From an uncultured Gammaproteobacteria bacterium (GTDB lineage Bacteria > Patescibacteriota > Patescibacteriia > CAZSQN01), in the NCBI GenBank assembly GCA_964609095.1, contig CAZSQN010000004.1, forward strand, positions 14,663-78,281: a DNA stretch of 63,619 nt, given 5' to 3'. This document shows positions 154 to 63,619 of this stretch, piece after piece. Numbering within the stretch: the stretch's first letter is position 1; every line of letters begins with the position of its first letter. A model generated the notes under the pieces. The model saw only the letters and a program-made list of their open reading frames with translations, was not told the origin of the DNA and did no database searches. Both the position numbers and the translations under genes were made by a program.

Positions 154-273
154 TCTTGGCGTTGGCCTACTTTCCCAGGACCGGGTTGGGTCCAAGTATC
201 ATCAGCGCTGGAGTGCTTAACTTCCGTGTTCGGAAAGGGAACGGGTGTGACCACTCCGCTCGAAACACCAAGA
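154..273 (-). rRNA. rrf: 5S rRNA
   Basis: Reverse complement reads tcttggtg...cccgttccctttccgaacacggaagttaagc...cgccaaga. It is 120 nt with paired termini. Confidence 0.9.
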
Positions 274-325
274 CTCTAAGCGTGTTTGGTTTTATTGCGG
301 TATTTTAAGGAAAAACAATGTAATT

Positions 326-540
326 GCCCAGCACATAAAACATTATGCGCTGAACTTTGTGTTCGTCCATACAAAGTTCACTAAGATTTTGTTTTACAAA
401 ACTTGGATAAATTTTAGTATGGAGAACGGCTTTGCCCAGCACATAAAACATTATGTGCTGGACTACGTGTTCGCCAACGCTTATCCACTAAATTTTGTTT
501 TATAAAACTCAGATGGATTTTAGCATGGAGAACGGCTTTG
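326..540. repeat. Two tandem ~107-bp units in the 23S-5S spacer, each starting with a gcccagcacataaaacattatg.gctg palindrome
   Basis: Units 326-433 and 434-540 align along their full length (both end ..atggagaacggcttt). They share the CAGCACATA/TATGTGCTG motif with elements elsewhere in the window. Confidence 0.85.
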
Positions 541-842
541 TGTTTCAGTGATAAGAAAGCACGACGGATCTATTAGTATGGCTCGGCTCAAACCATTGCT
601 GGCCTTACACCTGCCACCTATCAACCAGATATTCTCTCTGGGATCCATTAGACCTAATCTTGAAGACGGCTTCGCGCTTATATGCTTTCAGCGCTTATCC
701 GTGCCGAACGCTGCTACCGAGCGATGCCCTTGGTAGGACAACTCGTACACAGGAGGTTCGTCCTTCCCGGTCCTCTCGTACTAGGGAAGAGCCTTCTCAA
801 GTCTACGCGCCCACGACAGATAGGAGACCGAACTGTCTCACG

Positions 843-1572
843 CATGTTATTCCATTATTACTAATGGCATGGACTATATCTTCACCCTTTCTCACAGAAA
901 CTTATGAGAGGAGGGGCTGACGTATTATAGTTCTATAAGAACTATCCAGGTTTGATTTCTTATCAAACCTAAGTCTCTACGGGGAAAAGATTTATGTTTT
1001 TCAGAAAACTGATGATAGTTATACTCGTATTTGTCCGTTTTTTTGAATAATTGAATTTTGCCGTTTCATCAACAAGATAACTCAAGCGAATCAATTCCTT
1101 CGGACTCATCTTTTGAGGATGACTATCAATTATGGCTATCATTTTAATAGCCAGAGTTTTCTTTAAACGAAGAAATGGACAAAGAAGCTGTAATGTTTCT
1201 CGTACTTCTTTGAGGCCAACAATTGTATATTCAGTCATTCCGTCCTTTCGGTTGCGGATATAACCGAAGCGCAATTGTTTTTGTAGCCAAGAAAGGATAT
1301 CACGATGAATTGTTTTTTGATAGAACACAACGCTCGTGCGTATTTGGTATCCGTAAATATAATCTTTACGACGTACCAATTGAGCCATTATGCAACCATC
1401 TCCATCGAGAAATCCGGCTATATAAGCCTTATCTTCATTTGACATAAACCTATTCTTCCCTCGGTATTGCCCTCTTGACCAGTTGGTCTATATTTTTGAA
1501 ATCAAGTAGGGTTTCACCGATATTAGTCAGGTTTATTATATCGCATTTCTGCGATAGAACGCAATGTAACTT
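843..1572 (-). mobile_element. Group I-type intron in 23S carrying a LAGLIDADG ORF
   Basis: The conserved exon sequence gggttcagaacgt | cgtgagacagtt is split by 730 nt. The 5' exon ends in U and the insert ends in G. The site lies in the AACGTCGTGAGACAGTT segment targeted by I-CreI-type enzymes. Confidence 0.75.
969..1445 (-). CDS. LAGLIDADG homing endonuclease (single-motif, I-CreI-like size)
   Basis: The 158-aa ORF begins MSNEDKAYIAGFLDGDGCI (LAGLIDADG motif) and lies inside the 23S insert. Confidence 0.9.
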   Translation of the reverse strand: MSNEDKAYIAGFLDGDGCIMAQLVRRKDYIYGYQIRTSVVFYQKTIHRDILSWLQKQLRFGYIRNRKDGMTEYTIVGLKEVRETLQLLCPFLRLKKTLAIKMIAIIDSHPQKMSPKELIRLSYLVDETAKFNYSKKRTNTSITIISFLKNINLFPVET

Positions 1573-1605
<33 letters not shown>

Positions 1606-1885
1606 TGGCGAACAGCCAAACCCTTGGGAGCTTCTTCACCCCCAGGATGCGATGGGCCGACATCGAGGTGCCAAACCTCCTCGTCGATGTGGACTCTTGG
1701 AGGAGATCAGCCTGTTATCCCCGGAGTAGCTTTTGTCCGATGAGCTTCGACCCTCCTATGAGGAGTCGTCGGATCACTAGCTTCCGCTTTCGCGACTGCT
1801 CGACTTGTAGGTCTTGCAGTAAAGCCGGTTTATGCGCTTGCACGTCCCGCTCCGTTTCCATCGGAGCCAAACCGACCTTTGTAAA

Positions 1886-1931
<46 letters not shown>

Positions 1932-2225
1932 ACCAGATACTGTCTCCAAATCCCGATAAGGGACCCAGATAAGAATGAAAGTAACGCAAGGGTGGTGTCT
2001 CATTGGCGTCCCGCATTGCTGCGGAACTCCCACCTACGCTGAACATACGAAACCTTCACCCAATACCAAGTTGTAGTAAAGCTTCACGGGGTCTTTTCGT
2101 CTAGTCGTGGGTAATCCGCATCTTCACGGATCTTGCAATTTCGCCGAGTCCCTCGTTGAGACAGTCGCCGAGTCGTTATGCCATTCGTGCGGGTCGGAAC
2201 TCACCCGACAAGGAATTTCGCTACC

Positions 2226-2819
2226 TTAGGACGATTCTTTTGTGTTAGCTTCTGGTTTCCCAGAAGATCGGACTATATCTTCCGGCCGCTTTTTGCGCGG
2301 TCGCGGTCTAGCGTATAGTCTCTGAGGATTCTCTTTTAGCGATTGATAATAATCGCTAGCTGTATATTTTCTTTTTCTTCCTCTGCCTTCGTTAAGGTTT
2401 TCGCGCAGTGCAATAATATTTTCGAGCCCTTTGGCATTTAGATGCTGATTGGCAGTAACCAGTTCAGCAATCTGCTTGAAGATCGAAAAATTTATTTGTT
2501 TACGCTCTCCGAGGAAACGATACCGTTCAAAGAACGGGATAACCCGCTCTAAGATCGAACGTGGATTGGAAACCACATAGTAATGGATTCCGTCTGGTCG
2601 CGTCTGAAGCCGCCCGCATCCCAAATACCTTTTATAGTATGCCAGGACGCGTCGCTCTTTTTGCGACACATTAAAAGTTAAGACAACTTGCCAGCCCATT
2701 GCATGGTCGTTTCTTTGCCGAAGCGAGACATTGAAACTGCCTTCGCCATCTGCAAAACCGGCTAGATAGTAACCAATGGGTTTGGGAATTTGTTCTAACC
2801 ATGTAAGTTGCTTGCTCAT
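2226..2819 (-). CDS. LAGLIDADG homing endonuclease
   Basis: 197-aa ORF with YYLAGFADGEGSF. Its last codons and stop (..tcgtcctaa) run into the conserved exon sequence gtcctaaggtagcg. Confidence 0.9.
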   Translation of the reverse strand: MSKQLTWLEQIPKPIGYYLAGFADGEGSFNVSLRQRNDHAMGWQVVLTFNVSQKERRVLAYYKRYLGCGRLQTRPDGIHYYVVSNPRSILERVIPFFERYRFLGERKQINFSIFKQIAELVTANQHLNAKGLENIIALRENLNEGRGRKRKYTASDYYQSLKENPQRLYARPRPRKKRPEDIVRSSGKPEANTKESS

Positions 2820-2976
2820 ATTTTTAAGAGTCTTTCCTGCGGATTGTCCGTCACCCCGGTATTATCGGGGATTATTCATCTGATTGTTACTGCTTATTAT
2901 TAAAGCAAGTACAGATGACCTGGACGGAGTTTCCCGCATATAGCTAGATTTTTTTAGATAACTACAATCGTCTGGT
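2233..2976 (-). mobile_element. Second intervening sequence in 23S (intron-like, LAGLIDADG ORF)
   Basis: Exon segments ..ggcgataactataa and gtcctaaggtagcg (I-CeuI-type target region, E. coli ~1917-1931) are separated by ~745 nt. Junctions are uncertain by about 10 nt. Confidence 0.65.
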
Positions 2977-3888
2977 TTATAGTTATCGCCGGCGTTCATC
3001 AGCGCTTAGGTTCAAAGCTGCCTCCCGCATTGCTGCGGGAATGACCTCTCCCCTTAACGTTCTGACACTGGCCAGGCATCAGCCCCTATACATTGCCTTA
3101 CGGCTTCGCAGGGACCTGTGTTTTTGGTAAACAGTCGCTTGGCGTCTTTTGTTGCAACCCCGCTCTTTCCGCACTCCATAGAAAAATTCTTTCGTCTCAT
3201 TGGATTACTACCATTGAGTCGCATAGTAATTCTATGAGGGACAGAAAGAGCGGGGCGGGCCTTATTCCGAAGTTACGGCCGTTGTATTGCCGAGTTCCTA
3301 AACGAGGGTTCTCTCGTACACCTGAGCACACTTATGCCCGTCCACCTGTGTCGGTTTGCGGTACGGTTCCGGTCATGCGTGACCACGAGGTTTTTCTAGA
3401 CTCCACCTTTTTCCGCGTTGTCCGCCTTGCGGCAGACTGCCCGCGCCTTTTTGGTTTATGGCTTTGGGATTTACCTCAAAGCCGCCTTAAAGGCACGGAT
3501 GCATATAACCAAAATACATGCGGAATACGGTAAAGTGTCACCCCTTGGATAACATAATCGGAGTGCAGGAATATTAACCTGCTCTTCCATCGGCTACGCC
3601 TTTCGGCCTCGCCTTAGGATCGACTAACCCTGGGTCGATTTGCGTTGCCCAGGAAACCTTGGACTTGCGGTGGGGATGGTTCTCACATCCCTTTTTGCTA
3701 CTTATGCCAACATTCTCTCTTCCCAACGCTCCAGCGCGGCTTACGCCTTCGCCTTCAGCGCATTGGGAATGCTCTCCTACCAGTCATCCTGATAAATCAG
3801 AATGAATTCTCGTCTTCGGTATTCGGTTTATCCCCGGTTCATTTTCGGCGCGGAATAACTTGACCAGTGAGCTGTTACGCTTTCTTTA

Positions 3889-3926
<38 letters not shown>

Positions 3927-4627
3927 AGTCACTCCACCACCTTTTCAACTTAACCGAAATTTGGGGACCTTAGACGGAGATCTGGGCTGTTTCCCTTTTG
4001 AGCGATGGAGCTTAGCCCCCATGCTCTGACTGCCGGTATATATTCCGGTATTCGGAGTTTGGTTGGGGTAAGTAGGCTTTCGCCACCTCACCCCATTCAG
4101 TGCTCTACCCCCGGAATACTAAAACCGACGCTAGCCCTCAAGCTATTTCGGAGAGAACCAGCTATTACCCAGTTCGATTGGAATTTCTCCGCTATCCACA
4201 GCTCATCCCAAAGTGTTGCACGGCTCACGGGTTCGGACCTCCTCCCGCATTTCTGCGGGACTCATCCTGGCCATGGATAGATCACCGGGTTTCGGGTCTT
4301 GTGAATGCCGCTGGTCCTTGAAATATCAACGTCTCAAAAATTCAAGACGTCAATATTTCAAGGAAATCGCCGGTTAGGACTCGGTTTCCCTGTGCCTTCG
4401 TCCGGTTTGGACTTAGACTTGCGACATCCAACAAACTCGTTGGCTCATTCTTCAATAGGAACGCCATAACCGCTGCTTCGCAGCGGAAATCCGAAATCCC
4501 AAATCCGAAATCCGAATATGTTTCGGGTTTCGTGCTTCGAGTTTCGATATTCCCGGTGCGAAGCACCGGCGTTGACTCCTTGTAAGCATATGGTTTCAGA
4601 TACTATTTCATCGCCCTCACCGGGCTG

Positions 4628-4664
<37 letters not shown>

Positions 4665-5585
4665 ATCGTGGAGAGTATTTAGTCTTGGGACATAGTCGTC
4701 CCGGCTTCCCACAGGGTTTCACGTGACCCATGGTACTTGAGTAAACTGACCGTAGAAGCATAACCCCTTTCGCGTACGGGACTATCACCCGCTCTGGTAG
4801 GCCTTTCCAGGCCTTTCTGCTAGGGAAGTTATTTCCGCCGAAGCGGATTCTTCTACCTCGACTTTATAGGTGCCGAACGCCAATCGCTCGCAACACCCTC
4901 GCGCGCCATAGGGCCTATAACCTTTCTAACGCTTCCGTCCCGCATTGCTGCGGGACTTCCGCGAAAGAAACGCGCAAGAGTTTAGACTGTTCCCCGTTCG
5001 TTCGCCACTACTAAGGGAATACAGCAAACCAATAATCACTCATCCCGTAATTCGCGGGATGGGTGATTAAGATTTGCCATGTTTTTTTCTTTTCCTCTGG
5101 TTACTGAGATGTTTCACTTCACCAGGTGCCTTTCCTGACACTATGTGTTCATATCAGGATAGCCCGATCTTCCATCGGACTGGGTTTCCCCATTCGGAAA
5201 TCCCCGGATCAAAGCTTGCTTGGGAGCTCCCCGAGGCTTATCGCACCCTGCAACGTCCTTCATCAGCTCTCCATGTCGAGGCATCCACCATATGCTCTTA
5301 TGTGTGCTCTCGATCACTGAAACACAAAGACGTCCTCTGTGTTCAGAATTTATATTTTCCCGTTTAGAAGGTTTAGGACTTTTAAACGGGTTGCTAATTG
5401 CATTGTTTTTCCCACTTATGAAGTTAGTTAATAATTCTTGTCAGAATTTTTAGCTAACCTGTTTGTCAAAGTCCGGGCCTTGCTGCTCCTGGGCTTTGAT
5501 ATCCGATTTCCGAGAATCAGAGGCCAAAGGCATGAGCATTACTATGAATTTTGATTTAAAAAACCGCTTGGGACCAAGCGGACTA

Positions 5586-6983: not shown

Positions 6984-7559
6984 TTATCTTATTTTATTTG
7001 CTAAAAATTTTGTAGCTTCCTCGACTGACTTAAAACTTGGCACCCCCTGCTTTTTCCATTTCGAAATCCAATTTCTATGGGCTTTAACTTGATTTAGTTT
7101 ACCACTCGTTGCGCCCCCATCATAATTAGTTGTTTCTCTGATTTTAATAAACTTTTTGTGCGTTTTCCAGTTGGGAATAACGATAGCATCAGGTTTCAAC
7201 CAGTAATTTGATGCGCCGATAATCCAGAAACCTAATTTTTTGGCTTCCGCCGTAATTATATCACTGCGTTGATCAATTTCGTTTATCACCTCGATAGGAT
7301 CAAGCCACCATTGACTATTTGGGTGAGCTTTGGCAGACATCCAAAGATGATCCCCATCGACCCAATGTGGTTTTATTTGCTTTTTCACATAATGTGTTTT
7401 ACCCGTACCAGATGGCGCTAGGATGAAGTACCCTACTTTATGGGTTATATATTTCTTTTTCAGCTTATTATATATAGATGTGCCGTCTGAAAAAACTAAA
7501 GGCATATCCGGACCCAAAAGATTATATGCATTCGTTTGGGATTTATTTTTCATAATCAT
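6984..7559 (-). CDS. P-loop NTPase/kinase-like protein
   Basis: 191 aa with Walker A LAPSGTGKTH. Sits 5 nt upstream of the preceding ORF. Confidence 0.6.
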   Translation of the reverse strand: MIMKNKSQTNAYNLLGPDMPLVFSDGTSIYNKLKKKYITHKVGYFILAPSGTGKTHYVKKQIKPHWVDGDHLWMSAKAHPNSQWWLDPIEVINEIDQRSDIITAEAKKLGFWIIGASNYWLKPDAIVIPNWKTHKKFIKIRETTNYDGGATSGKLNQVKAHRNWISKWKKQGVPSFKSVEEATKFLANKIR

Positions 7560-8515: not shown

Positions 8516-9316
8516 CTATATTTTGTCTAGGTTTTCTAAAGTGGCTTTTATGCCATAACGGAGCACATCAGATTTTGCTCCGTTTTTTTGTTCATCGCCT
8601 TGCATGACTTTGTAAATAAGTTCGCTCAAATCTTTTAAACTTATTTCTGTTCCGCGGATGTCATTAACAAAAGACGCATTTTCGGCGGTTAGGGCTTCTA
8701 TCATCTTTTTAGCTGTTTCATCGGCTAAGATTAACTCAATTTTGTTTTCACCATCAGTAATGTCGATTTTCTTTCCGTCCAAAGCCTGCCTACACCATCT
8801 TGGCACGAGCCGAGGAATTCTCTCTAAATCCGTATCGTAGCCTCCGAAAACAACCGGCACTCTGATGACGCCGGTATTCAACCCTTCTTTTTGAAGCTCA
8901 TAGAGTTTGGCTTCAAAATCCATTTTTTGTTTTTCATAAAGATTTTGCGGTGAGAATTCGGATATATTTTCGGGTTCTAATCCGAAAAGTTCGCGCGAAC
9001 TGACCATTATCAAACGCGCGCGCGATTTTTTGGCCAGAGACACGGCGTGTTCAAATGTCTGATAATTTTTAAGATTAGTTTCAGGACTGTCTTCTAACCG
9101 CTTCGCGCTCGGTTCAGTAGTCAGAAAAAGAATGTCGGTTATTCCCTCATTGGCATTAATTTCATAATTTAAAAAATCTGTTAAAACATCGGTAAAAGAA
9201 GCATCCCATTCATTTGGGCGCTGATCGATGCCGATTGTTTTTATAGACAAATCACGGCTGGCCGTTATTACGGCTGTGCCTATTTGTCCGCTAGAACCAA
9301 TGGTCAATAATTTCAT
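8516..9316 (-). CDS. NAD-dependent epimerase/dehydratase (extended SDR)
   Basis: 266 aa. N-terminal IGSSGQIG Rossmann motif and a YEKQK (YxxxK) motif. Confidence 0.7.
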   Translation of the reverse strand: MKLLTIGSSGQIGTAVITASRDLSIKTIGIDQRPNEWDASFTDVLTDFLNYEINANEGITDILFLTTEPSAKRLEDSPETNLKNYQTFEHAVSLAKKSRARLIMVSSRELFGLEPENISEFSPQNLYEKQKMDFEAKLYELQKEGLNTGVIRVPVVFGGYDTDLERIPRLVPRWCRQALDGKKIDITDGENKIELILADETAKKMIEALTAENASFVNDIRGTEISLKDLSELIYKVMQGDEQKNGAKSDVLRYGIKATLENLDKI

Positions 9317-13040: not shown

Positions 13041-13775
13041 TTAAAATTTTATAAAAGCTAAACAGCCGCGAATTGGGCTATCCGCTTTTTTGATTTTTAA
13101 TTTTGAATCGTTTTTTCGGATTTCCAGAATAGAATCGCCTGATTGAAATTTTAAATTCGCCCCCGCTTTCGCTATGGCCGCTTTTACGTACTTTAATCCA
13201 TTGCCCCTGTGCTCCGGCGCTCTGCCGGTGATAAATTCTGTAAAAGCCGCATTTAACGCTTCTTCATCATTTTTAAGATTAGGCCGTATTCGGCGCAGCG
13301 TGGCTAAAATGCCCACGCCGCGATCGGCAAGAACAATAATTCGCTTGCCTAAATCATAGGCAAACAAGATGCCCTTTGTATCCGGCCAATTTCCCAGGTT
13401 ATGATCAAAGGAGTTATTACCGATCTCTCCTGCGGCTGACGATATAAGCGACGCGATTTCTTGGAGATCGGGGTGGGCATCAATTTCGTGCGCCATTCTT
13501 TCGTGCCGCGCTTTAAAGACATCGCTGGTCGCGGAATAGAAGTCATGCTCCGGCAAATAAGGATGTTCTGCGCCAGCCCATTCTTCCGCAAGCCGAAAGA
13601 TACCCTTGGTTTTTTTATTCAGATCGGCCAGCGAGTAGTACCTATGGCCTCCGGGCGAAACAAAGGTTGCCTTAAAAGTTCCGCTATTATGCCAACGGCG
13701 GAGGGTAGTTTGGGTCACGCCAAGGTATTCAGCGGCCTTTTTGATAGAAATGAGGTTTTTGGGAGAATTGGCCAT
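13041..13775 (-). CDS. MerR/excisionase-type HTH fused to a GHKL (histidine-kinase-like) ATPase domain
   Basis: 244 aa. N-terminal ISIKKAAEYLGVTQTTLRRWHNSG, then the N-box EIGNNSFDHN, G1 DRGVGI and G2 GNGLKY. Confidence 0.7.
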   Translation of the reverse strand: MANSPKNLISIKKAAEYLGVTQTTLRRWHNSGTFKATFVSPGGHRYYSLADLNKKTKGIFRLAEEWAGAEHPYLPEHDFYSATSDVFKARHERMAHEIDAHPDLQEIASLISSAAGEIGNNSFDHNLGNWPDTKGILFAYDLGKRIIVLADRGVGILATLRRIRPNLKNDEEALNAAFTEFITGRAPEHRGNGLKYVKAAIAKAGANLKFQSGDSILEIRKNDSKLKIKKADSPIRGCLAFIKF

Positions 13776-27806: not shown

Positions 27807-29042
27807 TTATTTTGTCAAGCTTAACAGATAAATCTGCCTAATAACTTTTTGCCCCGGTCGTTCATAGATTAGTCCGCCAGACGGACTCACCTTTATATAT
27901 GGAAGGCGGGTAGCGTCTGCCGGAAGAGGCGGGAGGATAACATAAGGAAAGTTTTTTATCTTTTCGGCAACGGGAATTGATATAATTCCGTTCCTGCTCG
28001 CAAATGACGGGAAAATCATAACTGCTTTTCCGCCCGGCTTTAGGATTTTTTCCCAGTCGCGAAGCGCGGCAAAGTAAATTTTTTCAAGCTCTTCCAGCCG
28101 GCGCCGCGCTTCTTCTTCGGACAAAAGCGATTTTTGAATCGGGCCCAGATACGGCTCGGTAATGATGGCGTCAATTTCTCTTTTTTTAAAATGTTTGGAA
28201 ATTTCTTGCGCTGGGGATTGAAAGACCTTGGTTTTCGCCCCGCTTGTTTCGGGAAAGAATCTTTTTACCCAGCTTATATTTTTTTCCGTTCCCTCCGCCG
28301 CGAATTTTTCCAAGTCCGTTGCAAAGATATTTTTATATCCCATGATCATGGCCTCTGTCGCGATTGTGCCAAATCCGCAAAACGGGTCTAAAATCTCGGC
28401 GGATTTATCCGTTCCGGCAAGATTGATCATTATTCTCGCGACTTTTGGCGGCAGGAGCCCTACTTCCATTTCGCGCGCGGGGCGTCCAAAATCGCGGTAA
28501 GAAAATTCTTCAAATTCCTGCACGGCAGTTGTTTTGCCGACATGAATTTTTGGGCCGTCAAAGATTAATAAAAACTCCGCGCCCCGCGTCAATAATTTGT
28601 TTTTGGCAACCACCACCGAGGAAAGAGTCGGCTCACGGCTTATAACATGCCGGGAAGATATGCCCGCTTTTTTTAACCTTGATTTAATGGCTCCGCCAAG
28701 GCCGCGTGTGTTGATTTTTCTGTTGCAGTATGATGAGATGCCGAAAAATATTTTTTTTGCCCCGTACCGAACTTGTTCTGGTGCGGGGTTTCCCGCAAAG
28801 TATCTTTCAAGATAAGAAAAAATAGAATTTTCCAGTTCCATCGCGCCGCTCTCGCCGATATGTTCGCCAATTTTAATCGCGCCGCCAAGCTCATGCATCA
28901 GCCGTTTGGGATCCAGCGGCTCTTTTGTTTCCGCTATTAACGCTTCGGCGCAAGGATAACTGAAATGCGCTTCAGGCATTTTTGCGTAAAGCTCGGCAAT
29001 GGAAAGCGCCGGGCTGCGGCCGAGGATAAAGATATATTTCAT
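27807..29042 (-). CDS. SAM-dependent RNA methyltransferase (Trm11/UPF0020-like)
   Basis: 411 aa. DPFCGFGTIA (motif I) and ITEPYLGP (a (D/N)PPY-like motif IV). Confidence 0.6.
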   Translation of the reverse strand: MKYIFILGRSPALSIAELYAKMPEAHFSYPCAEALIAETKEPLDPKRLMHELGGAIKIGEHIGESGAMELENSIFSYLERYFAGNPAPEQVRYGAKKIFFGISSYCNRKINTRGLGGAIKSRLKKAGISSRHVISREPTLSSVVVAKNKLLTRGAEFLLIFDGPKIHVGKTTAVQEFEEFSYRDFGRPAREMEVGLLPPKVARIMINLAGTDKSAEILDPFCGFGTIATEAMIMGYKNIFATDLEKFAAEGTEKNISWVKRFFPETSGAKTKVFQSPAQEISKHFKKREIDAIITEPYLGPIQKSLLSEEEARRRLEELEKIYFAALRDWEKILKPGGKAVMIFPSFASRNGIISIPVAEKIKNFPYVILPPLPADATRLPYIKVSPSGGLIYERPGQKVIRQIYLLSLTK

Positions 29043-34482: not shown

Positions 34483-34665
34483 ACTGATATTAGGTTTCCA
34501 TTGTCATTCCCGCCCCCGGTCGCAGCCGAGGGCAAGCTCCAGCGGGAATCCAGAATTTGAACCCGTAGATTCCCGCTTTCGCGGGAATGACAGATAACTG
34601 GCAAAGTTTAAACCTAAATTTTTGGCTAAATTTATAAACAATTTTTTATAAACCTAATACCAGCT
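34483..34665. repeat. ~185-bp TIR/hairpin element, copy 1
   Basis: Termini tgatattaggttt / aaacctaatac. 89-bp core 34503-34591 is gtcattcccgc..gcgggaatgac. The central 17 nt (34551-34567) is the reverse complement of the same segment in copies 2 and 3. Confidence 0.85.
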
Positions 34666-34670
34666 AATTC

Positions 34671-35744
34671 TTATGAAGCTTGGGCGACGGTTCCTTCATG
34701 CTGCGTGGGGAGAATATCCAGCTTGTCTTTTTCGCGCGCGGCCGCGAGCGCCCTGACGCGCACTTCTTTCATCAGTTTTGGATTTTCTCGCAAGAATTGT
34801 TTGGCCGCTTCTCTGCCCACGCCAAATTTAACGTCGCCTTCTCCGTCGGAGAAAGAATAAGTATTGCCGGATTTTAATACCACTCCCAGCGCGACTCCGG
34901 TATCCAGCAGGTCGCCGGGAACGGAAATCCCCTCGTTGTACATAATGTCAAATTCCGTGGCGCGGAAAGGCGGGGCGACTTTGTTTTTGACGATTTTGGC
35001 CTTAACGCGGTTGCCGATAATTTTTTCTCCTTGTTTTATCTGCGCGGCGCGGCGCACCTCAACTCTTACCGAAGCGTAAAATTTTAGCGCCATGCCGCCG
35101 GTGGTGGTCTCCGGATTTCCGAAGACGATGCCGATTTTCATTCTTGTCTGGTTTATAAAGATAAGCACGGTTTTTGATTTGGAGATAATACCGGTAAGTT
35201 TGCGCAAGGCCTGGCTCATCAGCCGCGCGTGAAGCCCCATATGGGATTCTCCCATTTCGCCTTCAATTTCCGCTTTGGGCACGAGCGCGGCCACGGAGTC
35301 CACCACGATTACATCAACCGCGTTTGAACGCACCAATGTTTCCACGATATCCAGCGCTTGCTCTCCGGTGTCCGGCTGGGAGATAAGAAGTTCGTTTATG
35401 TTTACTCCGATTTTGCGCGCGTAATCGGGATCAAGCGCGTGTTCCGCGTCAACAAAGGCGGCCAGGCCGCCGGCTTTTTGCACCTCGGCCACGATGTGCT
35501 GGGCAAGAGTGGTTTTGCCCGAGGCCTCGGGGCCGTATATTTCTATAATCCTGCCGCGGGGAACGCCGTTTACTCCCAAGGCAATATCCAGCGATAAACA
35601 CCCGGTTGGGACGGCATCTACGATCATTCTTCTGGCTTCGCCCAGCTTCATTATGGAGCCATCGCCGAATCGCTCCTTGATTTGTAAAATCGCTTCCTGC
35701 GCGGCTTTAAATTTTCCCGTCTCCTCCTTTTTTTCTTTAGACAT
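34671..35744 (-). CDS. recA: Recombinase RecA
   Basis: [18 protein letters not shown] Walker A. 357 aa with typical RecA sequence throughout. Confidence 0.95.
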
Positions 35745-35870: not shown

Positions 35871-36560
35871 CTAACGCACGGCCACTGGCTCCTCATAGAG
35901 CACGCGGCGAAAGATGGTTCTCTCCCTGCTTCTCCGTTTTGAAGCTGAAATTTTAATCAGATTCACTCCGCGTTCCAACCGCACTGTTTCTTTGAACTTG
36001 CCCTGCGTGTCGGAGATAACGTCTTCGCCGTTAATTTGGATGCGCGTTTCCGGCTCGGCGCCGCCGCGGACGATTATCTCTCCTCCTCTGGCCACGGCGT
36101 CTTCGGCCGGTTCAAGTATATAAAGTTCCGGAGGCGAGGTTATTTTTTTCGCTTCCAATCCCAAATAAACAAGAAGCGCCAGGCCAAGAAGGCCGAGCAT
36201 TGTCAGGCGCGTGATAAACACGGTGGGCAAAAGATAGGTTTTTAGAACTCCCGCGCTGGGCGCCAGCCGTTCCGGCGGTTTTGTTTTTTTTGTATTGCTG
36301 GTTTCAAGCTCGTAAAGATCCAAAAAAAATCCGCTGTCTCTGCCAAAGGCGCGGGCATAGGCGCGGATAAAATTTTTTATATAAATTTCTTCGGGAAGAT
36401 TTTCATAGCGTCCGGCTTCCAGTTCCGCAAGGTGGCGTTCGGGAATATGCAAAATCGAGGCCATGGCGGAAAGTTTTACGCGCTTCTCTTCGCGCAGCTC
36501 TTGTAGCCGTTCGCCTAGCTTCTTTTCACGGATTAGTTTTTTGGAAAAAAAACCTATCAT
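35871..36560 (-). CDS. HTH-domain membrane protein (RodZ-like)
   Basis: 229 aa. N-terminal XRE-type HTH (LGERLQELREEKRVKLSAMASILHIPERHLAELE), then a TM helix. Confidence 0.55.
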   Translation of the reverse strand: MIGFFSKKLIREKKLGERLQELREEKRVKLSAMASILHIPERHLAELEAGRYENLPEEIYIKNFIRAYARAFGRDSGFFLDLYELETSNTKKTKPPERLAPSAGVLKTYLLPTVFITRLTMLGLLGLALLVYLGLEAKKITSPPELYILEPAEDAVARGGEIIVRGGAEPETRIQINGEDVISDTQGKFKETVRLERGVNLIKISASKRRSRERTIFRRVLYEEPVAVR

Positions 36561-39073: not shown

Positions 39074-39255
39074 ACTGATATTAGGTTTATGAAAAATTGT
39101 TTATAAATTTAGTCGAAAATTTAGGTTTAAATCCTGCTAATTATTTGTCATTCCCGCCCCCGGTCGCAGCCGAGGGCAAGCTCCAGCGGGAATCTACGGG
39201 TTCAAATTCTGGATTCCCGCTTTCGCGGGAATGACATGAGAAACCTAATATGAGT
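39074..39255. repeat. ~185-bp TIR/hairpin element, copy 2 (arms inverted relative to copies 1 and 3)
   Basis: tgatattaggttt ... aaacctaatatga. Core at 39147-39235. Confidence 0.85.
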
Positions 39256-44078: not shown

Positions 44079-44216
44079 TCATATTAGGTTTTTCATGTCA
44101 TTCCCGCCCCCGGTCGCAGCCGAGGGCAAGCTCCAGCGGGAATCTACGGGTTCAAATTCTGGATTCCCGCTTTCGCGGGAATGACAAATAATTGGCAGAA
44201 TTTAAACCTGTATTTA
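44079..44216. repeat. ~185-bp TIR/hairpin element, copy 3 (long arm truncated)
   Basis: tcatattaggttt. Core 44097-44185 is identical in plus-strand orientation to the copy 2 core, but the arms are in the opposite order and orientation. Confidence 0.85.
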
Positions 44217-47636: not shown

Positions 47637-47665
47637 TTGACAGGTTTGGGGGTAATGTGTAATAT
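47637..47665 (+). promoter_or_regulatory. Strong sigma70-type promoter for rpoBC
   Basis: TTGACA-ggtttgggggtaatgtg(17)-TAATAT, ~225 nt upstream of the rpoB ATG. Confidence 0.55.
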
Positions 47666-47808
47666 CTATATATAAATGGTGGGTACCCATTGCGGGGCCC
47701 TATTGTTTTTCTCGGTTTCTTTTTGAATGGATATCGAGATTTTGTCTAAAATTAGCTATTTTTCCGTGGGTCTATTTTTAAATCAAAACCAAATCCCACG
47801 TTCTTAGA

Positions 47809-47845
47809 ACTCACCCCCCACCTATGGGGAGGGAGTTTTTATTTT
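47809..47845 (+). terminator. Terminator-like hairpin inside the rpoB leader (possible attenuator)
   Basis: actcacccccc-acctat-ggggagggagt followed by tttttatttt, ~45 nt before the rpoB start. Confidence 0.4.
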
Positions 47846-50800: not shown

Positions 50801-51158
50801 TCAGCGCTCCATCGGCCCGTATTCGCTTATCACCCAGCAGCCGCTCGGAGGCAAAGCGCAATCAGGCGGCCAAAGATTTGGAGAAATGGAAGTGTGGGCG
50901 CTTGAGGCCTACGGAGCGGCGCATATGCTGCAGGAGATTTTGACCATTAAATCAGACGATGTGCCGGGCAGGAGCAAGGCCTATGAGTCAATTATAAAAG
51001 GAGAGCCGATCAGAAAGCTTAATGTTCCGGAATCGTTTAATGTTTTGGTGCGCGAACTTAAGGGGCTGTGTTTGGATGTGGAACTTTTAAAAGACGGTCG
51101 AAAAGTTTCCGCGGATAAAGAAGTAAGCGCGCCGCCAACGCGGACAAGGAGAACTTAA
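47889..51158 (+). CDS. rpoB: DNA-directed RNA polymerase subunit beta
   Basis: 1089 aa with canonical beta-subunit segments (e.g. [25 protein letters not shown]). Confidence 0.97.
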
Positions 51159-51179
51159 AAAATAATTCTTTAATGTGGT

Positions 51180-51274
51180 AACTGCCGTTGTACGGCAGTT
51201 AAGCGCAGCGAGACACAGCCGAAAGTGAGGGCGAGTAGATGAGCCCGAACGGGAGGATGTGTCGGAAGCGAGCA
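51180..51274 (+). promoter_or_regulatory. Conserved structured leader, copy 1 (abuts the rpoC ATG)
   Basis: 9-bp hairpin aactgccgt-tgt-acggcagtt, then AAGCGC..CGAGACAC..CGAAAGTGAGGGC..GCCCGAACGGGAG..GTGTCGGAAGCGAGCA-ATG. A homologous element lies at 59144-59232. Confidence 0.6.
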
Positions 51275-54200
51275 ATGCCCGAATTTAATCGCGAAGCCCC
51301 GGTAATTGATTTTGACGCCATCCGTCTGCGGCTGGCCTCGCCCGAGGTTATTCATGCCTGGTCTTACGGCGAAGTCACCAAGCCGGAGACGATAAATTAT
51401 CGCACGCATAAGCCGGAAAAAGACGGCCTTTTTGACGAACGGATTTTCGGTCCCACCAAGGATTGGGAGTGTTATTGCGGAAAATATAAAAAAATAAGAT
51501 ACAAGGGAATTGTCTGCGACAAGTGCGGAGTGGAAGTGACGCATTCTCTTGTCCGCCGCGAGCGTATGGGGCACATTGATTTGGCCGCCCCCACCTCGCA
51601 TATCTGGTTTTTGCGCGGGGTTCCTTCCAAAATCGGATTGGCGCTGGATTTGTCAGTGCAGAGTTTGGAAAAAATTATTTATTTTGCCAATTTTGTAATC
51701 ACGCGCGTGGACGAGGCGGCTAAGGCCGAAGCGCATGAAGCCATCCGCGAAGAATTCGCGCAGAAGAAGAAAGCCATAGAAGGAGAGTACAAGCGGGAGA
51801 TTGAGCGTTTGGAGGCAAAGGGAGCTAAAGAAACGGAAAAAGAAAAAGCCGGCAAGCTCCGCGATTCCAAAATTAAGGAGCTGACGGAGGATTTTGAAGC
51901 GGCGGATAAAGAATTAAAAGAAATCGTTCCGCTGGCCATTATTTCCGAAAACGCTTATCAAGAATATTCTTTGCGCTACGGCCATATTTTTGACGCCGGC
52001 ATCGGAGCGGAAGCGGTTCGGGCTTTGCTTTCCAGAATTGATGTTCCCAAGACCATCGCCGGACTTGAAGCCGAGCTTAAAGAGTCCCGCGGCGGCGCTA
52101 AAAGCGAACGCATTGTGCGCCGCCTTAAACTTTTGAAATCGCTTCACGCCAACGGATTGCGTCCGGATTTTATGATTTTGACCGCCGTGCCGGTGATTCC
52201 GCCGGATCTGCGCCCGATGGTTCCTTTGGATGGAGGGCGCTTTGCCACCTCTGACTTAAATGATCTTTACCGCCGCATTATAAATAGGAATAACCGTTTA
52301 AAGAGATTAGTTGAGTTAAACGCGCCGGAAGTCATAAGCAGAAACGAAAAGCGCATGCTGCAGGAGGCCTGCGACGCGTTAATTGACAACAGCGCCAGGC
52401 AGGCCAAAACGGTGGTGGCGCCGGCAGGCAAAAAACGGCAGCTAAAATCATTGGCGGATATCTTAAAAGGAAAACAAGGGCGGTTCCGCCAGAACCTTTT
52501 AGGCAAGAGAATTGATTATTCCGGCAGAAGCGTCATTGTGGTCGGGCCGAATTTGAAATTGCATCAATGCGGTCTGCCCAAACGGATGGCTTTGGAGCTT
52601 TTCCGGCCGTTTGTCATCAGCCGGCTGATTGCCGCCGGACTCGTGCATAATATAAGAAGCGCCAACCGTTTTATTGAACTTGATAAAAGCGAGGTTTGGG
52701 ACATGTTGGAGGACATTACCAAAGGCGCACATGTGCTCTTAAATCGCGCGCCGACTTTGCACCGTCTGGGCATCCAGGCCTTTCAGCCGATTTTAATAGA
52801 AGGCAAGGCGATTCAGATCCATCCGATGGTTTGTACCGCCTATAACGCCGACTTTGACGGCGACCAGATGGCCGTGCACGTGCCTCTGACGGAGGAGGCC
52901 AAGCGCGAAGCGGCCGAGCGCATGCTTTCTGTCCGCAATCTTTTGAAGCCGGCAACCGGCTCTCCTGTCGCCACGCCAAACAAGGATGTGGCCTGGGGCT
53001 GTTATTATATGACCTTGGCCACCGGCGCGGAAAAGAAAGATAAAAAGGCCTTTGCCTCGCCGGAAGAAGCGATTTACGCGTATGAGACAAAACATCTTTC
53101 ATTGCATGAATTGATTAGAGTCCGTTTGAGGGAAGCTCATGAGGCGGGATTGTTTGAAACCACAGTGGGCAGAATCGTATTTAACCGGGTGCTTCCGGAC
53201 GAAATACCTTATGTAAACGAAGTGACTGACACAAAGCGTCTGGGAGAAATCATCCGCCTTTCGCTTGAAATTTTTGGAAACGATATTACGGCGCGGCTTT
53301 TGGACGATATTAAGGCAATCGGATTTAAATACGCGACTCGTTCCGGCTACTCGTGGGGCATGGGCGACCTGCCCGACCTGCCGGAAAAGTCCGCGCTTAT
53401 AGACGAAGGCAACCGCCAGATTGATTTGGTTGAGGAGCAGTTTAGCGAGGGGCTGCTTACGGCGTCCGAACGGCACGCGAAAATAATTGAGACCTGGACG
53501 GAAATAAAAGACCGCATCACCAAGCTTTCCAAAAGCAAGCTTGATCCGGCCAGTTCCGTCGCCAGTATGATTAACTCCGGCGCCAGAGGCTCGCTGGGGC
53601 AGCTTACGCAGATGATGGCAATGAAGGGGCTTGTGACCAACCCGGCCGGAGACATTATTGAACTTCCGGTTAAGGCCGGATTTAGGGAGGGGCTGGATGT
53701 GCTGGAATATTTTATTTCCACTCACGGCACCAGAAAAGGACTTTCCGATACCGCGCTCCGCACCGCCAACGCCGGCTATCTCACCAGGCGTTTGGTTGAC
53801 GTGGCGCAGGACGTGATTGTCTCCGAGAATGATTGCGGCGATAGCGAAGGAATGCAAATCGGCCTGGAAGAGAGCGAGGAAATGGGCGAAACCGTGGCGC
53901 ACAGAGCCTTGGGCAGATACCTTTTGGCCGATATCAAAGACCCCAAAACCGGCAGGATTTTTGCCAAAGCCGATACTTTGATTACTGAAAAAATTGCCAG
54001 AGAAATTGAAAAAAGGGAAATAATCGAAGTGCGCGTAAGAAGCGTTTTGCATTGCCGTTTGCGCAAAGGAACCTGCCAGAAATGTTATGGCTACGACCTG
54101 GCTTACAACAAGCCGGTGGAGATCGGCACGGCGGTGGGCATTGTGGCGGCGCAGTCAATCGGAGAGCCGGGCACCCAGCTTACAATGAGAACGTTTCATA

Positions 54201-59021: not shown

Positions 59022-59143
59022 AGACTGGACGCTTAAAGCTACAAGCTATAAGCCAGGTAGTAGAACTTTGTTTCACTACCTGGTAAGCTGAAAGCGTTAA
59101 TATCTAAACGCTGAACGCTAATAAGAAATCACTTTATTATAGT

Positions 59144-59232
59144 AATGCCTATTGTATAGGCATTAAGCGCGAACGAGACACGCGCGAAAGTGAGGGCAAA
59201 GCCCGAACGGGAGCGGCGTGTCGGAAGTGAGC
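59144..59232 (+). promoter_or_regulatory. Conserved structured leader, copy 2 (abuts the yebC-type ATG)
   Basis: 9-bp hairpin aatgcctat-tgt-ataggcatt, then AAGCGC..CGAGACACGCGCGAAAGTGAGGGCAAAGCCCGAACGGGAGCGGCGTGTCGGAAGTGAGC-ATG. Confidence 0.6.
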
Positions 59233-59964
59233 ATGAGCAGGCATTCTAAGTGGAGCAAGATTAAGCGTCAAAAGGGCATGGCAGATGTTGCCAAGGGCAA
59301 AGTTTTTACCAAGCTGGGCAAAGCTATAACTATTACGGCGCGCGAGCGCGGCGGCGACCCGGGAACAAACTTTGGTTTGCGTTTGGCCATAGACAAGGCG
59401 CGCGAAGCCAATATGCCCAAAGATAATATAGAGAAAGCAATTGCGCGCGGCACGGGCGTTGGCGCGGATGTCTCTATGATAGAAGAAGTGGTTTACGAGG
59501 GTTATTTGCCGGGTGGAGCTGCTCTTATGGTTTCCGCGCTTACAGACAGCCGCAATCGGACCACCTCCAACATCAAGCATGTCTTGTCCAAATACGGCGG
59601 AAACCTGGGCGGCATGGGCTCGGTTTCCTGGATGTTTGAGAAGAAAGGAGTCATTAAAATAAAATTGGAATCAATTGCCAATAAGGGTAAAGAAACAGCC
59701 GAATTTGAGCTCATTGATGCCGGAGCTGATGACATAAAAGAAGAGGACGGAGCAGTGGTTGTATATATAGGAGCGGATAAGCTTCAATCTGGCCGCGAGG
59801 CGATATTCGCCCTTGGCTACGAAATAGAGTCAGCCGAGCTGGAGCAGGTTCCCAAAAATCTTGTTAAGATAGAAGACGAAGCCAGTCGAAGCGGTATAGA
59901 AAATATTTTTGAAGCGCTGGACGAAGACGAGGATGTTAATGATTTTTATACCAACATTGAATAG
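59233..59964 (+). CDS. yebC: YebC/PmpR-family transcriptional regulator
   Basis: [38 protein letters not shown]-like N-terminus. 243 aa. Confidence 0.9.
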   Translation: [243 protein letters not shown]

Positions 59965-60038
59965 GGTAGAGGGGCCAGGGTAAAGGGTATAGTTTTAAAA
60001 ACTATTACCTAAACCCTAAACCCTAAACCCTAAACCCT

Positions 60039-61786: not shown

Positions 61787-61831
61787 GAGCATTGGGGTAG
61801 CTCAGTGGTAGAGTCCCGCACAAATGCCAGG

Positions 61832-61903
61832 GCCAGGGTAGCTCAGTGGTAGAGCGAAGGACTGAAAATCCTTGCGTCGAGAGTTCAATTCTCTCCCCTG
61901 GCA
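61832..61903 (+). tRNA. tRNA-Phe (anticodon GAA)
   Basis: gccaggg-ta-gctcagtggtagagc-g-aaggactgaaaatcctt-gcgtc-gagagttcaattctctc-ccctggc-a. Bracketed by the 10-bp helix cccgcacaaa / tttgtgcggg. Confidence 0.88.
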
Positions 61904-62005
61904 TTTGTGCGGGATAAACTCCGGACTGAAAATTTTACCCCGTACTTCACGAAGTGATAGTATGGGGCCTTGCGTAGCCAGTCCGATTCTGGCCTCCGGC
62001 ACCAT

Positions 62006-62959: not shown

Positions 62960-63619
<660 letters not shown>

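Follow-up and report, generated by a model that had tools for sequence, protein, structure and literature searches.

An uncatalogued structured leader RNA that ends at the start codons of rpoC and yebC in a patescibacterial genome

Ribosomal-protein leaders are protein-binding translational operators, and E. coli rpoB and rpoC are likewise under autogenous control, exerted at translation. To our knowledge, almost nothing is known about how the core expression machinery is controlled in the Candidate Phyla Radiation (CPR)/Patescibacteria, which are uncultured and have tiny genomes. Orphan candidate cis-regulatory leaders located 5′ of rpoB have been described as RNA motifs named Lacto-rpoB and Rhodo-rpoB (Weinberg et al., PMC5737381). 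Here we analysed a 63,619 nt stretch (the window) of an uncultured patescibacterial genome (GenBank GCA_964609095.1, contig CAZSQN010000004.1), in which a ~95-nt element occurs twice, directly 5′ of rpoC and of yebC. Like Lacto-rpoB and Rhodo-rpoB, it is a structured 5′ leader of RNA-polymerase subunit genes that is lineage-restricted, was found by covariation and has no assigned ligand or function. The element is a real structured leader RNA with robust statistical support that had not been catalogued before, and it represents a new family within a known kind.

The first copy spans 51177-51274 and ends at the ATG of rpoC, and the second spans 59141-59232 and ends at the ATG of yebC. The two are ~80% identical from ~20 nt 5′ of a hairpin through to the ATG, and the similarity breaks off at the start codon. 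An earlier reading made from the letters alone (the sequence-only reading) had described a shared architecture at 51180-51274 and 59144-59232, each locus running to its start codon, and both loci do read so: AAGCGC..CGAGACAC, CGAAAGTGA, GGGC-loop-GCCC, GAACGGGAG and GGAAG(C/T)GAGC(A)ATG are present in both copies, the GGGC-loop-GCCC loops measure 10 versus 3 nt, and the closing pairs covary (gacaca/tgtgtc versus gacacgc/gcgtgtc). The same reading had called the loci unlinked, which is not strictly so, since they lie on one strand 8 kb apart. Its 116-nt rpoB-rpoC spacer was recovered, as the rpoB stop codon ends at 51158 and the rpoC ATG lies at 51275. The core pattern CGAAAGTGAGGGC-N-GCCCGAACGGGAG was found twice in the window versus 0 times in 100 shuffles, and a covariance model scanned over all window positions returned only the two copies (E 1e-22 to 1e-23), the next match having E = 0.24; the yebC copy scored 106 bits (E = 4e-22). 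By the same model no further copy was found in the remaining ~55 kb of the window or in the 7.9 kb past its right end, so that the source genome has 2 copies in the ~71 kb searched.

Both window copies adopt the same two-part fold (z −4.2 to −4.7) on the plus strand, in which an A/U-rich flank leads into a 5′ hairpin (P0) and then into a rod-like hairpin. In copy 1, the sequence-conserved flank (aATAATTCTTTAATGTgg, 51160-51178) is followed by P0 at 51179-51201, a 10-bp stem (51179-51188 with 51192-51201) with a UGU loop at 51189-51191. The flank of copy 2 (gaaatcactttattatag, 59124-59142) is a diverged form of the same sequence, orthologous to gatataccttattatag in the relative L128 (see below), and is followed by P0 at 59143-59165, again with 10 bp (59143-59152 with 59156-59165) and a UGU loop (59153-59155). 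For this stem, 9 bp, a UGU loop and six differences with pairing kept had been proposed; the loop and the maintained pairing stand, while the arms (taactgccgt/acggcagtta in copy 1 versus taatgcctat/ataggcatta in copy 2) have five differences each, all compensated, and the stem can be drawn with 10 bp. Across the copies, the flank follows the consensus [AG]ATAAT-t/a-CCTTA-N4-6, after which come AGU and the 10-bp hairpin, whose loop is usually UGU. Within the sequence searched, the 11-12-mer ATAAT[TA]C[CT]TTA was found only at copies of the motif (window 51162 and three sites in the relative L136), and the flank is nearly identical between the orthologous rpoC sites of the window and L136, although neutral spacer DNA there can no longer be aligned.

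After an AAG, the rod of ~70 nt runs through P1 (2 bp), a tandem G.A, P2a (2 bp), a GA-GGAA loop, P2 (9 bp), a GAAA-GGGA loop, P3 (2 bp), a second tandem G.A and P4. In copy 1 (51203-51273; minimum free energy fold −27.5 kcal/mol, z = −4.66), P1 pairs 51205-51206 with 51272-51273, P2a 51208-51209 with 51268-51269, P2 51212-51220 with 51255-51263, P3 51225-51226 with 51249-51250, and P4 the GGGC at 51229-51232 with the GCCC at 51243-51246; the GAAA/GGGA step beyond P2 is a 4x4 purine loop, and the variable apical loop occupies 51233-51242. In copy 2 (59167-59232; −29.1 kcal/mol, z = −4.19), the pairs are 59169-59170 with 59231-59232 in P1 (then GA/GA), 59173-59174 with 59227-59228 in P2a (then GA/GGAA), 59177-59185 with 59213-59222 in P2 (G59215 bulged; then GAAA/GGGA), 59190-59191 with 59207-59208 in P3 (then GA/GA) and 59194-59197 with 59201-59204 in P4, closed by the apical loop AAA. 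Apical loops of 3, 10 or 19 nt occur among the copies, and the 19-nt loop folds into an additional hairpin. The best-conserved part of four canonical copies is the unpaired loop nucleotides, which are 85-92% identical and thus above the helices, and the 5′ hairpin is free in sequence (30-57% identity between non-orthologues). Such loop conservation is the signature of a sequence-specific recognition of the loops.

Whether this fold is under selection was evaluated on five canonical copies (window rpoC, window yebC, L128 yebC, L136 rpoB and L136 rpoC) and 29 pairs. In total, 97% of the cells pair and 16 of the 29 pairs carry double (compensatory) changes; these values were reached by 0 of 500 shuffles, and 3′ partners that were slid out of register pair at just 24-42%. 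In the 5′ hairpin P0 of the five copies, all cells (100%) pair and 7 of the 10 pairs have double changes. As this alignment had been fitted to the model, the test was repeated with RNAalifold on a structure-blind MAFFT alignment that included the flanks, and the same 29 pairs were obtained, 13 of them with compensatory changes. The G.U wobble cells fall on the coding strand, and the sense folds are always more stable than the antisense folds, by 5-15 kcal/mol. Orthologous sites were informative as well: the 5′ hairpins of the window and L128 yebC leaders are distinguished by A-U to G-C and U-A to U.G changes, and 7 of 10 hairpin pairs are replaced between the rpoC leaders of the window and L136. 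Compensatory substitutions that postdate divergence at orthologous sites indicate that pairing was selected in place and not merely inherited from a master copy. Thus, the element is a selected, sense-strand RNA fold, and the conserved structured leader with compensatory changes that had been proposed from the two copies was borne out. Two coding explanations were also considered and rejected: the two 143-aa minus-strand open reading frames (ORFs) that overlap the copies are unrelated, and the AUGs of the flank and hairpin, candidates for an upstream mini-ORF, are not conserved between copies.

The boundary with the downstream genes was then defined by alignment with orthologues, which identified ATG 51275 (rpoC) and ATG 59233 (yebC) as the true starts. 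The product of the gene downstream of copy 2 matches Pfam TACO1/YebC from residue 5 on, and its N-terminus, MSRHSKW, matches homologues. Starts assigned mechanically within the motif (ATG 51239 and GTG 59218) are artefacts that add spurious N-terminal residues; a public gene call for L128 makes the same error with a GTG inside the motif (L128 3001). In all five canonical copies, 0-1 nt separate the end of the element from a verified coding-strand ATG. The sole Shine-Dalgarno (SD)-like sequence is GGAAGYGAGC in the basal helices P1/P2a, with GGAAG 5-6 nt 5′ of an AUG that is itself unpaired: copy 1 has GGAAG at 51264-51268, the spacer CGAGCA and the rpoC ATG at 51275-51277 (51264-51277 overall), and copy 2 has GGAAG at 59223-59227, the spacer TGAGC and the yebC ATG at 59233-59235 (59223-59235). 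P1 and P2a together amount to −5.3 kcal/mol in copy 1 and −4.5 kcal/mol in copy 2; across copies, the basal helices with GGAAGYGAGC contribute −3 to −5 kcal/mol and the upper rod −23 to −47 kcal/mol. GGAAG therefore lies within weak basal helices, in agreement with the proposal that the SD-like sequence is part of, or adjacent to, the structure. A covariation-supported sense-strand fold and a consistent position and orientation 5′ of coding genes are two of the marks of a cis-regulatory structured leader, and the canonical copies show both.

Most genes of the source genome have A/U-rich leaders with no SD sequence, GGAGG occurs in a few, and in several a TATAAT lies only 7-10 nt upstream of the ATG; since most leaders are A/U-rich and SD-less, a GC-rich fold touching the start codon is exceptional here. 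SD-less A/U-rich leaders in the window are exemplified by the minus-strand genes 6984-7559, 8516-9316, 13041-13775 and 27807-29042. A TATAAT-like box so close to the ATG suggests that the mRNA has no leader or nearly none. Short tandem repeats were also observed directly 5′ of starts, such as (CTAAACC)n at 60009-60038 before ruvC, with (CGCTATA)n and (AGCTAAC)n among further examples and additional sites 5′ of the minus-strand genes 35871-36560 and 34671-35744; AAGCT/ACGCT-type repeats occur in the yebC leaders of the window (59040-59120) and of relatives.

Among GTDB species representatives, none has an RpoC more than 69% identical to that of the window, and the nearest one carries the label Candidatus Magasanikbacteria; closer relatives (YebC 61-84%, RpoC 83-85% identical) were present only in Logan, ENA and NCBI metagenome assemblies. 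A covariance model built from the copies, as the sequence-only reading had advised, found the two window copies and additional ones in L128 and L136. In L128 (Logan ERR7015365), the motif precedes yebC (116 bits). In L136 (ENA ERZ21828386), a single contig carries it before rpoB (81 bits, 94 with a second model) and before rpoC (54 bits, 90 with the second model), together with a variant before a tRNA-Phe gene (E ~0.015-0.09), which makes three copies in 14.5 kb, all in sense orientation and at gene starts. Five canonical copies are thus known from three assemblies (the window genome, L128 and L136), or six copies with the tRNA variant. As to which genes are preceded, all additional canonical copies have the same orientation and end at start codons, so that the set comprises rpoB, rpoC and yebC. 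All six copies lie in one co-oriented neighbourhood, rpoB-rpoC-yebC-ruvC-galT-tRNAs, in which the gene upstream of the window yebC is divergent. The L136 variant keeps the 12-nt flank AATAATTCCTTA and the 5′ hairpin as well as AAGCGCAG and, at its close, AAGCCGAGCAC, but has a different interior hairpin. Its last base adjoins tRNA-Phe position +1, and this tRNA gene contains a group I intron (Rfam Intron_gpI, 84 bits). The L136 rpoC copy, positional orthologue of the window rpoC copy, has kept the rod, gained new tandem G.A steps and lost the canonical loop sequences (59% identity), and canonical copies at different genes and in different genomes are more alike than the positional orthologues at rpoC.

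Other relatives do not have the motif at the corresponding sites: it is missing before yebC in L129, L132, L133, L134 and L135, before rpoC in L129, L137, L138 and L142 (A/T-rich spacers of 11-129 nt), and before rpoB in L137 and in the window. In the motif-less yebC leaders of L132 and L135, aacgctaataaat runs straight into the ATG, and L132 reads aacgctaataaatATG where the window reads aacgctaataa, gaaatcactttattat, the motif and the ATG. Because orthologous leaders devoid of the motif run directly into the ATG, the element behaves as a ~110-nt insertion and looks inserted or duplicated. The relatives form a star phylogeny (RpoC 83-87% identical in every pairwise comparison), and its presence is therefore patchy. 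Beyond these assemblies, no motif was seen in the rpoB-rpoC spacers of the 20 closest relatives among 80 RpoC-linked GTDB loci, the covariance model found no match at E < 0.1 on the 22 loci of the nearest relatives to which it was applied, and neither viral contigs nor the records of phages and plasmids contained a match. When scanned for the exact core pattern, the GTDB representative genomes had 0 matches, and a relaxed pattern in JGI metagenomes gave 47, all chance or coding matches on inspection; the L136 rpoB copy reads CAAAAG and CCCUAAC and would escape both patterns, so these GTDB and JGI absences are weak evidence, and given the patterns used the family may be wider than it appears.

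No known family was recognised in the sequence-only reading, and this is supported by Rfam 15: at the gathering threshold neither window locus matched any family, Lacto-rpoB, Rhodo-rpoB, L10 leader, riboswitches, ribozymes, SRP and 6S included. At E ≤10, the only matches of the window copies were sroD (11.6 bits, threshold 50) and, at the 5′ hairpin, a plant miRNA model (19 bits, threshold 60), and the L136 copies matched no family. That reading had also named what would speak against it, namely a Rfam match, many randomly oriented copies away from gene starts, or the loss of covariation in a larger alignment, and none of these was encountered. Several specific identities were tried and rejected. 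A kink-turn of the L7Ae type does not fit, the tandem GA/GA lying in symmetric 2x2 loops or in the 2x4 GA/GGAA loop with no 3-nt bulge in register. The 5′ hairpin is not an intrinsic terminator, for AAGCGC and not a U-tract follows it and a terminator scan reports none there. Mimicry of rRNA amounts to one 10-mer in common with 23S rRNA, which is within chance. For the 5′ flank, a sigma-70 promoter was considered, and no −35/−10 pair at 16-18 nt spacing was found, just a −10-like [AG]ATAAT in 4 of the 6 copies. Taken together, the element is best explained as a lineage-restricted family of cis-acting structured leader RNAs that are transcribed together with the downstream gene.

The element probably controls the translation or the processing of the downstream messages. 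We tentatively favour, as the leading one among several readings and still short of even chances, a translational operator whose basal helices are clamped when a trans-acting factor binds the purine loops. In the free state, the basal helices would breathe, leaving GGAAG and the AUG accessible to the 30S subunit, while the stable upper rod, which begins at about −13, could sit outside the mRNA channel. A trans-acting ligand would recognise the invariant purine loops, and its binding would clamp the basal helices shut and block initiation. Copies at rpoB, rpoC and yebC would then define a small co-regulated set of genes for the gene-expression machinery, akin to autogenous RNA polymerase control, and would have arisen by duplication or insertion before pre-existing start codons within one genomic neighbourhood. 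This operator reading draws on five canonical copies from three genomes with identical architecture, each at a verified coding-strand ATG, on loops that are conserved above the 5′ hairpin, and on weak SD-holding basal helices below a strong upper rod. A protein is judged a more likely ligand than a metabolite, because the gene set hints at no metabolite, the fold, a simple rod, abounds in G.A pairs, and the element is dispensable in sister genomes.

A number of observations weigh against an operator. The element is absent from the same sites in L129, L132-L135, L137, L138 and L142, which indicates that its role is dispensable in most sister genomes. The L136 rpoC copy, with its rod kept and its loops lost, fits a structure-only role better than a specific operator, and the variant that shares the flank, 5′ hairpin and basal frame abuts tRNA-Phe, a gene for which control of translation makes no sense. 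As an SD sequence GGAAG is weak, and it reads GUAAG in L128; only 5-6 examples of the element are at hand. Neighbouring hypothetical proteins gave no family match and no lead to a ligand or protein partner; the divergent genes 5′ of yebC in the window and in L128, considered as a shared partner, are non-homologous.

The main rival, less probable than an operator but a serious contender, holds that the element is an RNA processing or "punctuation" and stability module, in which the rod would be the site of a structure-specific endonuclease, RNase III-like or other, in a long same-strand gene array. Cleavage at or near the rod base would release either a downstream unit whose leader is very short or a tRNA with its 5′ end, and the 5′ hairpin and A/U-rich flank would set product stability or form a second cleavage site. 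RNase III sites in the spacers between genes of phage T7 and in the rplL-rpoB spacer of E. coli offer an analogy. Three features point to a role exerted by shape and position and not by a binding pocket: the downstream unit, AUG and tRNA-Phe +1 alike, always begins within 0-2 nt of the end of the element; the L136 rpoC copy, like the tRNA variant, keeps the shape or frame of the rod and not the loop sequences; and every copy sits in one co-oriented gene array. Moreover, the genome apparently favours leaderless or short A/U-rich leaders, so that a processed, near-leaderless mRNA would be translatable. However, loop nucleotides that are better conserved than helices, as in four copies, are atypical of RNase III sites, the rod is broken by many non-Watson-Crick pairs, the gene 5′ of the window yebC is divergent and leaves no polycistron that needs cleavage there, and no nuclease candidate was found.

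An unlikely alternative is a metabolite or ion riboswitch of the rod type, in which the conserved purine loops would form the pocket and the ligand would stabilise a basal P1 that sequesters the ribosome-binding site. Highly conserved internal loops flanked by covarying helices, an apical extension that varies in length, as those of aptamers often do (3, 10 and 19 nt, with an additional hairpin in the longest), and a marginally stable P1 that holds the SD-like sequence beside the AUG are all compatible with an aptamer. The conservation of a putative aptamer core is mixed, since four copies keep the loops at 85-92% identity and the orthologous L136 rpoC copy keeps the rod and changes them, so that the putative pocket is altered at an orthologous site. 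In addition, rpoB, rpoC and yebC hint at no metabolite, the phyletic pattern is extremely narrow and patchy with the element lost or absent in sister genomes, there is neither a multi-helix junction nor a pseudoknot, and no Rfam riboswitch matched even at E ≤10.

The insertion-like appearance against motif-less orthologous leaders, the patchy presence over a star-like phylogeny and the greater similarity of canonical copies across genomes and genes than of rpoC positional orthologues could also be produced by a selfish or neutral dispersed repeat, a MITE-like (miniature inverted-repeat transposable element) or locally duplicating element that resides in leaders with no host role, and the genome harbours another, clearly MITE-like repeat family. 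Nevertheless, we consider this explanation rather improbable: the element has no terminal inverted repeats (its ends read GATAAT.../...GAGCA) and no target-site duplication relative to the empty sites, its copy number is low (2 in ~71 kb), all copies are sense-oriented exactly at gene starts, compensatory evolution with G.U intermediates took place at orthologous sites after insertion, and the flank is conserved where neutral DNA has diverged past alignment.

Still less probable is a portable expression cassette, in which the [AG]ATAAT of the flank, 10-12 nt before AGU, would be a −10 box, the transcript would start just 5′ of the hairpin, the hairpin would act as a 5′-terminal stabiliser and the rod would supply the ribosome-binding site; in a related version, the rod is a ribosome-recruiting enhancer. 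In 4 of 6 copies the hexamer is indeed conserved and has a constant spacing to the hairpin, and an internal promoter would be sensible for the L136 rpoB copy, which lies just 3′ of a strong terminator, and for the tRNA variant, which lies just after another tRNA. Against it, a consensus scan detected no sigma-70-type promoter on the plus strand 5′ of either window copy, with neither a −35 box nor a TGn, the hexamer is degenerate in both yebC copies (GAAATC, GATATA), and the conserved purine loops are left unexplained. Of similarly slight and marginally lower probability is a portable "plug-in" leader, copied before several genes and, as a variant, before a tRNA, which would serve as a punctuation device and whose conserved fold would direct cleavage exactly at its 3′ boundary, be it autocatalytic or by a dedicated nuclease; if so, the internal cistrons of a long transcript would be turned into mRNAs without leaders, and the 5′ end of the mature tRNA would be generated, in a CPR lineage largely without SD leaders. 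Least probable of all is a self-cleaving ribozyme that cuts at its own 3′ boundary to give leaderless mRNAs and the mature tRNA 5′ end: the payload does begin 0-2 nt past the last helix in every copy, the tRNA variant included, and the cores of small ribozymes often contain conserved purine-rich loops with sheared G.A pairs, but no Rfam ribozyme family matched at E ≤10, the canonical loops are missing from the tRNA variant, the distance to the payload is not constant (0 to 2 nt), and no class of small ribozymes is known to us to cut at the extreme 3′ end without downstream pairing.

Several further features of the neighbourhood were recorded. Upstream of rpoB, at 47638-47845 (+), a strong promoter (TTGACA-17-TAATAT) is followed by a highly conserved ~170-nt leader with several covarying hairpins that ends in a clear intrinsic terminator (CTCACCCC..GGGGAGGGAGTTTTTATTT). 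The same leader is found in L136 (~2280-2480), L137 (~520-740) and L129 (~1830-2010); it has no significant Rfam match, Lacto-rpoB and Rhodo-rpoB included, and from its sequence looks like an attenuator or riboswitch-like leader. A second, unrelated repeat of ~97 nt, intergenic and MITE-like, occurs on the minus strand at 34497-34593, 39141-39237 and 44091-44187, with the core GTCATTCCCGCGAAAGCGGGAAT...GCGACCGGGGGCGGGAATGAC, the inverted flanks aggtttaaa / aacctaatat and three exact copies of a 23-mer; the central ~27 nt are inverted in the 34.5-kb copy relative to the other two. At 61787-62005 (+), tRNA-Phe (61832-61903) is nested between 11-bp inverted repeats and inside what appear to be the two halves of another tRNA (GGGGTAGCTCAGTGGTAGAG ... 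GGCCTCCGGCACCA), and at 12437-13000 of L136 the group I intron (Rfam, 84 bits) sits in the tRNA-Phe anticodon loop, with a neighbouring tRNA-like gene that has an insertion. The rRNA genes are unlinked, the 16S lying ~57 kb from the 23S/5S (window 154-5311 and 62960-63619, minus); several long insertions interrupt the 23S gene, and an ORF for a LAGLIDADG homing endonuclease (969-1445) lies between 5S and 23S. A bAvd/23S_rRNA_IVP-family gene is inserted between yebC and ruvC in L133 (1070-1462) and L134 (991-1341), and a 52-aa fragment of a Y1 (IS200/IS605-type) transposase lies 5′ of rpoB in L129 (1590-1748), which together indicate mobile-element traffic in this neighbourhood.

A covariation-supported RNA at the starts of both large RNA-polymerase subunit genes and of the gene for the translation factor YebC is a concrete object of study that can be synthesised. 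Its patchy, insertion-like spread among gene starts offers a small natural case of a cis-acting RNA module being gained, copied and remodelled; the distribution is narrow and the gain-and-copy history intriguing. As a third, unrelated structure beside the orphan "rpoB leader" motifs, the element adds weight to the view that control of RNA polymerase synthesis at the RNA level has arisen repeatedly in evolution.

Compared with known systems, the element differs from both Lacto-rpoB and Rhodo-rpoB in that it does not match their Rfam models even at E ≤10, and unlike them it is also placed before rpoC and yebC, stops right at the start codon, has several copies in a genome and is patchy among sister genomes. 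MIRU, ERIC/IRU, BOX and Correia elements are structured intergenic repeats within operons, and phage T7 has RNase III sites; the present element resembles all of these as a short, multi-copy, transcribed intergenic and operon-oriented sequence that folds in the mRNA and may alter the processing or translation of the next gene, but has a very low local copy number, no terminal inverted repeats, strong compensatory evolution at orthologous sites and loops conserved above the stems. With the rod-type riboswitch aptamers (THF-II/folE, NMT1/xanthine and the NAD+-I domain), it has in common a single long hairpin with conserved internal loops between covarying helices and a ribosome-binding site in the 3′ strand of the basal helix, whereas it matches no family, is known from three assemblies only, has an extra 5′ hairpin and an A/U-rich flank, and the genes give no hint of a ligand. 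Unlike protein-binding translational operators, it shows no rRNA mimicry and places the same operator on functionally different genes; like the ribosomal-protein leaders and the E. coli rpoB/rpoC case, its structure overlaps the initiation region of expression-machinery genes, and its purine-rich non-canonical loops are, by analogy with those operators, likely the recognition surface.

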